Shown in pieces: positions 20,399-21,496 of a stretch of DNA of 64,000 bases (position 1 is the first letter of the stretch; each line of letters begins with the position of its first letter). This stretch comes from Longimicrobiales bacterium. GTDB lineage: Bacteria > Gemmatimonadota > Gemmatimonadetes > Longimicrobiales > Gaopeijiaceae. A program made the translations under genes and the position numbers. Under the pieces are notes generated by a model. It searched no databases. It was given only the letters and a program-made list of their open reading frames with translations, and was not told the DNA's origin. The stretch lies in contig CBDDCX010000008.1 of assembly GCA_965226375.1 (NCBI GenBank), positions 1,248,001 through 1,312,000 of the forward strand. The letters are read 5' to 3'.

Positions 20399-21496
20399 AT
20401 GGGGTATTGCCTTAAGTCCACCGCCCACTACATGTTGTGGTCATGGCGGTTCCGGCTTCTCAGCTCCGTGGCGGCGTGGACTATCCCCGTACGCGGCTGG
20501 AGCTGGACGAGTTCTTCCCCGACGATGCGGCATGCCTGGAGTACGTGGAGGGTCTGCGCTGGCCGGAAGGGTTTGTGTGCGTGGGCTGTGGCGGGTTGGG
20601 AGAGGTCTGGCGAGCATCGCGGGGGCGTCTCGTCTGCCCACACTGTCGAAGGCAGACCTCGGTGCTGGCGGGAACCGTGTTCCACCGCACGCGCTCGCCC
20701 CTGCGTCTGTGGTTTCTCGCTGCCTGGGAGCTCACGAGCCAGAAATACGGAGCCAATGCTCTCGGGCTCCAGCGCGTGCTCGGACTGGGAAGCTGGACGC
20801 CACGTTCTTGGACGCCCGCTGGGCTACAAGACAGCGTGGGTCTGGCTCCACAAGCTCCGCCGGGCCATGGTCCGACCGGATCGCGACCAGCTGAGCGGCG
20901 TTGTGCAAGTGGACGAGAGCTATGTCGGGGGCGTGGAGGCTGGAGTGCGGGGCCGCGAGACGATCAAGAAGGCCATCGTCGCGATCGCCGCCGAGGTCGA
21001 CGGACGCAAGATCGGGAGAATACGGCTGCGTTGGGTGCCCGACCTCTCCGCTCCGGTTCTGCGAGGCTTCGTCAAGGATAGCATCGCACCGGCAAGCACG
21101 GTGCATACCGACGGATGGCCAAGCTATCAGGGACTCGCCAAACTGGGCTTTCGCCACACGGTCACGAACCTCTCGACCTCCGGCGATCCCGCTCACGTGC
21201 TCATGTCGGCCGTACATCGGGTGGCGTCTCTCCTCAAGCGCTGGGTCCTCGGAACCCTCCAAGGAGGGATCGCCCGCGAACACCTCCCCTACTATCTGGA
21301 CGAGTTCACCTTTCGCTTCAACCGACGCACATCCCGGGCTCGCGGCCTGTTGTTCTACCGCTTGCTTGAGCAGGCTGTTCAGTGTGCTCCCACGCCAGCT
21401 TCGGCCCTTTACCTCGGCACCGGACGTGGGAAACGGCCCGCAGAGCCCCGGTAACCACTATATCTTGGGGTCGGTGGACTTAAGGGAATACCCCCT
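20399..21496 (+). mobile_element. IS1595-family (ISSod11-like) insertion sequence
   Basis: TIRs ATGGGGTATTGCCTTAAGTCCACCG / AGGGGGTATTCCCTTAAGTCCACCG; 8-bp direct repeat TTGTGTAA at 20391-20398 and 21497-21504. Confidence 0.92.
20443..21454 (+). pseudogene. IS1595 transposase frameshifted by a 31-bp insertion
   Basis: Zn ribbon (CVGC…CPHC), VQVDESYVGG, VHTDGW, YLDEFTFRFNRR. Removing 20794-20824 restores GLGSYKTAW in one 327-codon frame. Confidence 0.9.

Follow-up and report, generated by a model that had tools for sequence, protein, structure and literature searches.

Results

An IS256c fragment inside a nested IS1595 element

The window analyzed here, a stretch of 64,000 nucleotides (G000:C8:1248001-1312000), belongs to a source genome, G000, that was assembled to 4.23 Mb on eight contigs (C1-C8) and is 90% complete; the labels of homologous sequences point to Gemmatimonadota. 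The window harbors a compound of two insertion sequences (20375..22874, plus strand), in which the left end of an IS256 element of variant 'a' contains a nested IS1595-family element. The IS1595 element (20399..21497, plus strand) comprises 1068 bp plus a 31-bp insert, features terminal inverted repeats and a 7-8 bp target duplication, and encodes a transposase with a Zn ribbon (PF12760) and a DDE domain (PF12762). The IS256a transposase (PF00872; 21640..22821, plus strand) is intact. No target duplication surrounds the compound as a whole. Its right flank recurs at a sister copy (C8:1930332), and the compound is succeeded, at 22875-23843, by part of another Mutator-family element and then a truncated ISB copy. 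At C8:193074 and C8:2230386, an IS1595 of opposite orientation occupies the same spot of the IS256a left end, which means at least two independent hits there.

The 31-nt insert (20794..20824, plus strand; 20793-20823 is an equally valid reading) splits the IS1595 transposase between GLGS and YKTAW and shifts its frame, as stated in the initial annotation and confirmed here at the level of the assembled sequence. It corresponds exactly to an internal stretch (positions 629-659 out of 1376) of a further IS256 variant, 'c', which occurs twice in the same genome (elements at C7:557482 and C7:671284, matching stretches at C7:558110 and C7:671912). Identity extends over 31 of 31 nt, or 32 nt with the preceding C, at a chance expectation of 2e-11. 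The donor that had been postulated as a related but different IS256 was thus found; the neighboring IS256a, with five mismatches over the insert vs. none for IS256c, was rejected as its source. The peptide LDATFLDARWA, annotated from 20793, is read identically in insert and donor. Neither IS ends nor an 8-bp target duplication were detected at the insert, the piece being internal and the repeat 3 nt at most, in agreement with the earlier view that this is no ordinary transposition scar.

The GCT noted at both junctions does stand there (20792..20794 and 20823..20825, plus strand), but the repetition is largely coincidental: the donor also contains the CT of the left junction and the GC of the right one, which leaves the left G and the right T as target-only bases. 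Since a donor match of 32 nt faces a gain of 31 nt, one nucleotide of the junction is ambiguous and no target duplication is required; a duplicated GCT was discarded as unneeded, with the donor accounting for all but one base. Judged from the sequence, the GCT pair is compatible both with one shared base plus two coincidences and with 2-nt microhomologies plus a 3-nt repeat.

The latter reading, with its 2-nt matches at both ends, would suit a templated insertion, in which the copying enzyme, a polymerase or the group II intron reverse transcriptase, left IS1595 at CT for IS256c DNA or mRNA, synthesized about 30 nt and went back at GC. Group II intron-like reverse transcriptases are reported to perform microhomology end-joining (bioRxiv 2022.03.14.484287), and because the genome holds eleven reverse-transcriptase matches, mostly from one multi-copy element, this process is kept as a minor rival. 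It would, however, need two switches on 2-nt homology and meets the same objections from donor bias and mosaics that are raised below against end-joining; we regard it as very improbable. The piece could also be what remained of a real, full IS256c insertion after two deletions, as IS-into-IS insertion is common here and the 3-nt repeat could derive from an 8-bp target duplication. Yet each of the two deletions would need an endpoint within that duplication, with the target restored precisely and the copy free of substitutions, and four such cases are implausible, so that erosion deserves next to no credence.

Among the 42 near-full IS1595 copies of the genome, the insert is unique to this one, the other 41 being free of it. 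A whole sister IS256::IS1595 compound (C8:1927864-1930332) is identical on both sides of the insert over 2469 bp and lacks it, as does a second sister at C7:207729, and the one IS1595 copy found in the relative G002 is likewise uninterrupted.

The insertion site and a possible end-joining route

A double-strand break in IS1595 could have been repaired by Ku/LigD end-joining, with ligation of a 31-bp IS256c scrap derived from a degraded transposition intermediate or from community DNA. The search for repair genes proposed in the initial annotation returned both partners intact: ligD (841 aa, with phosphoesterase and polymerase domains), a 481-aa ORF and ku (282 aa) lie side by side at G000:C7:76079-81221 (L058), and end-joining capture therefore stays a candidate. 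A target without loss and a 1-nt overlap fit blunt joining and the little junction homology expected of such events, and uptake of foreign DNA by non-homologous end-joining was shown in Sinorhizobium (PMC6379672). Moreover, the insertion site is the center of an AGCT palindrome, and +1 alleles exist at the same place in other assemblies (see below). Against a special role of this motif, AGCT is not depleted in the genome (ratio 1.02), occurs nine times in this IS1595 and is absent from the three other solitary-piece sites described next; for the same reasons, a restriction cut at AGCT was rejected. Altogether, we consider end-joining capture an unlikely explanation of the insert.

Further solitary IS pieces in the genome

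As the initial annotation had suggested looking for other foreign inserts of about 30 bp, the genome was scanned and yielded three further solitary IS pieces of +26, +42 and +54 bp. In an IS481-family copy (C8:231751), 55 nt of ISA, an integrase-core element with about 37 copies, replace 1 nt of target (net +54). A DUF5916 gene (C8:2258669) is frameshifted by 26 bp of ISB and is uninterrupted both in G002 and in two proteins on four contigs of other assemblies (99.3-99.8% identity). An ORF at C8:1177443 carries 42 bp of ISA in frame, which are missing from six near-identical proteins on ten contigs, one of them assembled from short reads. Each altered form was found on one contig, and an exact look-up of four insert-bearing ORF versions in the protein collection, for which the choice of start is uncertain, returned none. 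Near-identical alleles from other assemblies are thus clean wherever found; altered alleles private to one assembly would, however, also result from a recent real event.

Each of the four solitary pieces matches a current multi-copy IS over its whole length (100% identity), and the junction overlaps range from 1 to 7 nt with no motif common to the four. Two of the pieces lie in ordinary genes, which, together with the missing junction motif, gives no support to the suggestion that fragments of one IS serve to inactivate another. Recombination at an IS110-type core or a nuclease site was likewise dismissed, as the four junctions share no core, although an IS110-family element is present.

Off-target integration by Cas1-Cas2 would deliver mobile-element DNA of about the length of a spacer, and in both respects the 31-bp piece resembles its products. 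The proposal is nevertheless not supported in this genome: no PF01867 (Cas1) match was obtained in the assembly at its 90% completeness, and neither a CRISPR array nor a repeat-like duplicated target was detected, the one array-like match being a coding-type tandem repeat on C2. Furthermore, unlike spacers, the analogues have no one fixed length (26-55 bp, or mosaics) and no duplication of repeat length.

Two observations on individual genes belong here. An in-frame, IS-derived insertion of 14 residues is found at L013:1261-2052 (G000:C8), and the corresponding fusion protein, P0313, is already in the NCBI and ENA collections. At L014:1612-2484 (G000:C6:98111-98983, minus strand), a gene that we take, from a motif, to resemble a type I restriction specificity subunit is broken by two IS1595 scraps of 26 and 53 bp, while a 489-aa relative (P0322, 94%) reads on past the break.

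Mosaics and garbled IS copies

Apart from the solitary pieces, the assembly contains five or more loci at which IS scraps and duplicated flanks form a mosaic. In four of them, IS scraps and target segments alternate collinearly (C5:138141-139297, C6:352821-353281, C2:50840-51353 and C7:146250-147153), and the flank is duplicated in the examples on C5, C6 and C2. In the C2 mosaic, 116 bp of target separate pieces that lie 507 apart in the IS. The stretch C8:2246338-2247173 has duplicated flanks and IS pieces out of order and was not counted as collinear. For the MFS gene on C6, the duplication is missing from four near-identical proteins on six contigs of other assemblies; the gene in the C5 mosaic is a D-aminopeptidase by protein search, which returned no same-strain allele.

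Garbling is also seen within the IS copies themselves. When IS or intron copies and pieces that differ from their reference by no more than 3% substitutions (162 in total) were aligned family by family, 14 displayed 4-31 small gaps each, the gaps usually outnumbering the substitutions, a pattern unlike normal ageing. At C8:11512-15009, a noisy IS1595 copy precedes two units with similarity to IS1595 on both strands (about 70% over C8:12.6-15.0 kb); the whole resembles a tandem or inverted pair whose consensus became garbled. Similar garbling was observed in twenty stretches (396 kb) of G001, the second long-contig genome of the genus. As separate observations, short inverted-repeat elements of about 150-170 bp form a MITE-like family with several copies (e.g., C2:39444, C5:229717, C8:105873 and C8:1698037), and another IS1595 copy (C8:2262239) carries a 60-bp tandem duplication; tandem duplications of 12-60 bp were often left by the simulation described below.

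These data weigh on end-joining capture in two ways. Firstly, the donors of the clear cases are all multi-copy IS, although such repeats (those with at least two partners) make up 4.9% of the genome. Among 43 leftover short-match rows between unique sequences, judged by eye, no unique-DNA donor was identified; most rows had the look of small repeats, paralog motifs or IS scraps, with a few unexplained. Secondly, independent capture events would not yield collinear mosaics with duplicated flanks.

Simulated polishing of mixed alleles

The polishing logic of racon, edlib and spoa was re-implemented by us and run on error-free reads of an empty and an IS256c-filled allele. One round already produced mosaics like the real ones, with duplicated flanks and eroded IS. 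In 7 of 50 runs, ten internal IS pieces of 21-75 bp stood between consecutive target segments, about 500 apart in the IS and with 115-136 bp of target between them, next to the 507 and 116 of the real C2 mosaic.

Solitary internal pieces with intact target were rarer and appeared in five of the 303 classified runs, all at a depth of three reads and after two to three rounds (5/109 low-depth runs; 40 bp with a 1-nt overlap, 50 bp with a 2-nt overlap, and 129, 132 and 156 bp). All five came from the 22 runs with two empty reads and one filled read and two to three rounds (5/22), while no solitary piece of at least 20 bp was obtained in 194 runs that used greater depth, omitted trimming or capped the fragments at 20. 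The mechanism is accordingly sufficient to create an insert of this kind but requires very low depth.

The locus in public runs and other assemblies

Contigs from four public runs (X15, X16, X17 and X20), which are simplified contigs rather than raw reads, were compared with the locus; the best-matching runs with a habitat label are sponge metagenomes. X15 and X16, from one sample, hold the locus on a unique contig (depth 6.6 and 10.7) that runs into the element, whereas in X17 and X20 the element is apparently missing there. In the pieces listed for the four runs, the insert junctions were not seen and solely the empty form was present, at a depth of 178-867. Positions 20798-20822 had no coverage in X15 or X17, the bin depth equaling that of the skipping contig multiplied by 32/57. 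The missing junction counts against end-joining capture, yet as a weak negative, since a short low-depth branch may be pruned from simplified contigs. As a control, the junctions of other IS1595 truncations, at window-equivalent positions 20952, 21007 and 21202, break the contigs in three, two and three of the four runs, respectively. Stretch 20411-20743 is unbroken in X15 and X16 by the scraps C2:51075 and C6:98234 and by the truncations at 20579, 20685 and 20728, and these two scraps therefore look absent from that sample. Scans for the junction and +N patterns in JGI metagenomes and GTDB genomes, collections from which the source genome itself may be missing, gave no match.

In X16 and X20, the depth of IS256c contigs exceeds that of single-copy DNA about 100-fold, and IS1595, ISA and IS256c are common to other species of the genus at 95-100% identity (G002:C2:405628-406523; G001 L031-L050), which together make a recent exchange of IS in the community likely. 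An abundant donor of this kind would favor end-joining capture, and it would also favor a library or read chimera, i.e., a single chimeric molecule incorporated into the contig; contigs resting on one read are documented in sections of a recent assessment of long-read assemblers (bioRxiv 10.1101/2025.04.22.649783). A chimera would need two switches back to the same base, however, and leaves the mosaics unexplained; we rate its probability as minimal.

Proteins from other assemblies feature a +1 frameshift at IS1595 position 396 (window 20794), i.e., at the insert site (P0125 on three contigs, P0132 and P0155; observed at the protein level, with queries that favored +1-frameshift proteins such as these). 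Two of the three start with a different left-end variant, and they may represent one inherited copy. The +1 allele at this very position is unaccounted for by a polishing artefact.

Discussion

Taken together, we favor the interpretation that the 31 bp are a leftover of consensus polishing and not real DNA, to which we assign a probability of roughly 0.75. The initial annotation had named an assembly error as the case that would undo its proposal and, read-level spanning apart, the analogues point there, with collinear IS/flank mosaics and duplicated flanks that the polishing simulation reproduced. We infer a mixed population of sequenced molecules, of which only a part bore a complete IS256c within or close to this IS1595. 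Unit-cost alignment would then have smeared the length difference of 1.4 kb across a few hundred bases, and a consensus in fixed 500-bp windows could have kept the empty allele plus an IS scrap at a window edge, the accompanying flank duplication being deleted in a later polishing round. Under this scenario, a minority of the reads should contain a real IS256c insertion no further than about 350 bp away, which the simulation would place most probably 150-200 bp to the right of the insert, around window 20970-21030. Among the loose ends listed in the public-run contigs, no IS256c end was found, and the 2.5 kb around the insert are otherwise perfect, the latter speaking against an artefact.

Polishing of this type is in use among long-read assemblers. 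According to the corresponding section of its publication, metaMDBG polishes by partial-order alignment in 500-nt windows, after racon (PMC11392814). For long-read metagenome assemblers, chimeric merges of subpopulations, false duplications and unsupported indels are documented in parts of a recent preprint (bioRxiv 10.1101/2025.04.22.649783), and our case resembles these errors in the joining of two subpopulation alleles, the false local duplications, the broken frames and the trouble with transposases. In contrast, the events described there are larger, indels below 150 bp being hidden in its figures, and internal IS scraps of 25-55 bp or a window-edge mechanism do not occur in the parts of that work compared here; a literature search for a published description of either found none.

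The closest counterpart of a real event is Sinorhizobium meliloti, in which, as far as the portions of the report compared here describe, Ku and LigD captured heterologous DNA, namely a 1.3-kb cassette supplied together with an engineered break, in many cases with loss of sequence at the ends (PMC6379672). Common to both systems are a non-homologous fragment in the chromosome with little or no homology and the presence of Ku and LigD, whereas those portions contain neither 30-bp donors taken from IS only nor mosaics with duplicated flanks.

If the leftover interpretation holds, IS-rich long-read genomes from mixed populations may contain clean-looking foreign inserts of 25-55 bp and, with them, false pseudogenes, and in-frame fusion proteins such as P0313 have already entered public protein collections. 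Searching the rest of an assembly for collinear IS/flank mosaics would be a cheap screen.

If, however, the junctions were real, they would provide a natural record of the capture of IS DNA by end-joining in a bacterium, a process so far seen mainly at engineered breaks, as in the described S. meliloti experiments (PMC6379672). The solitary pieces would then mean that the Ku/LigD system of this symbiont mends chromosomal breaks with IS scraps of 25-55 bp, taken from itself or from its neighbors, leaving dated scars by which transposases and genes are inactivated, and that a recurrent break in IS1595 could also have given rise to the +1 alleles in other hosts, a prospect that we deem doubtful on the present balance.
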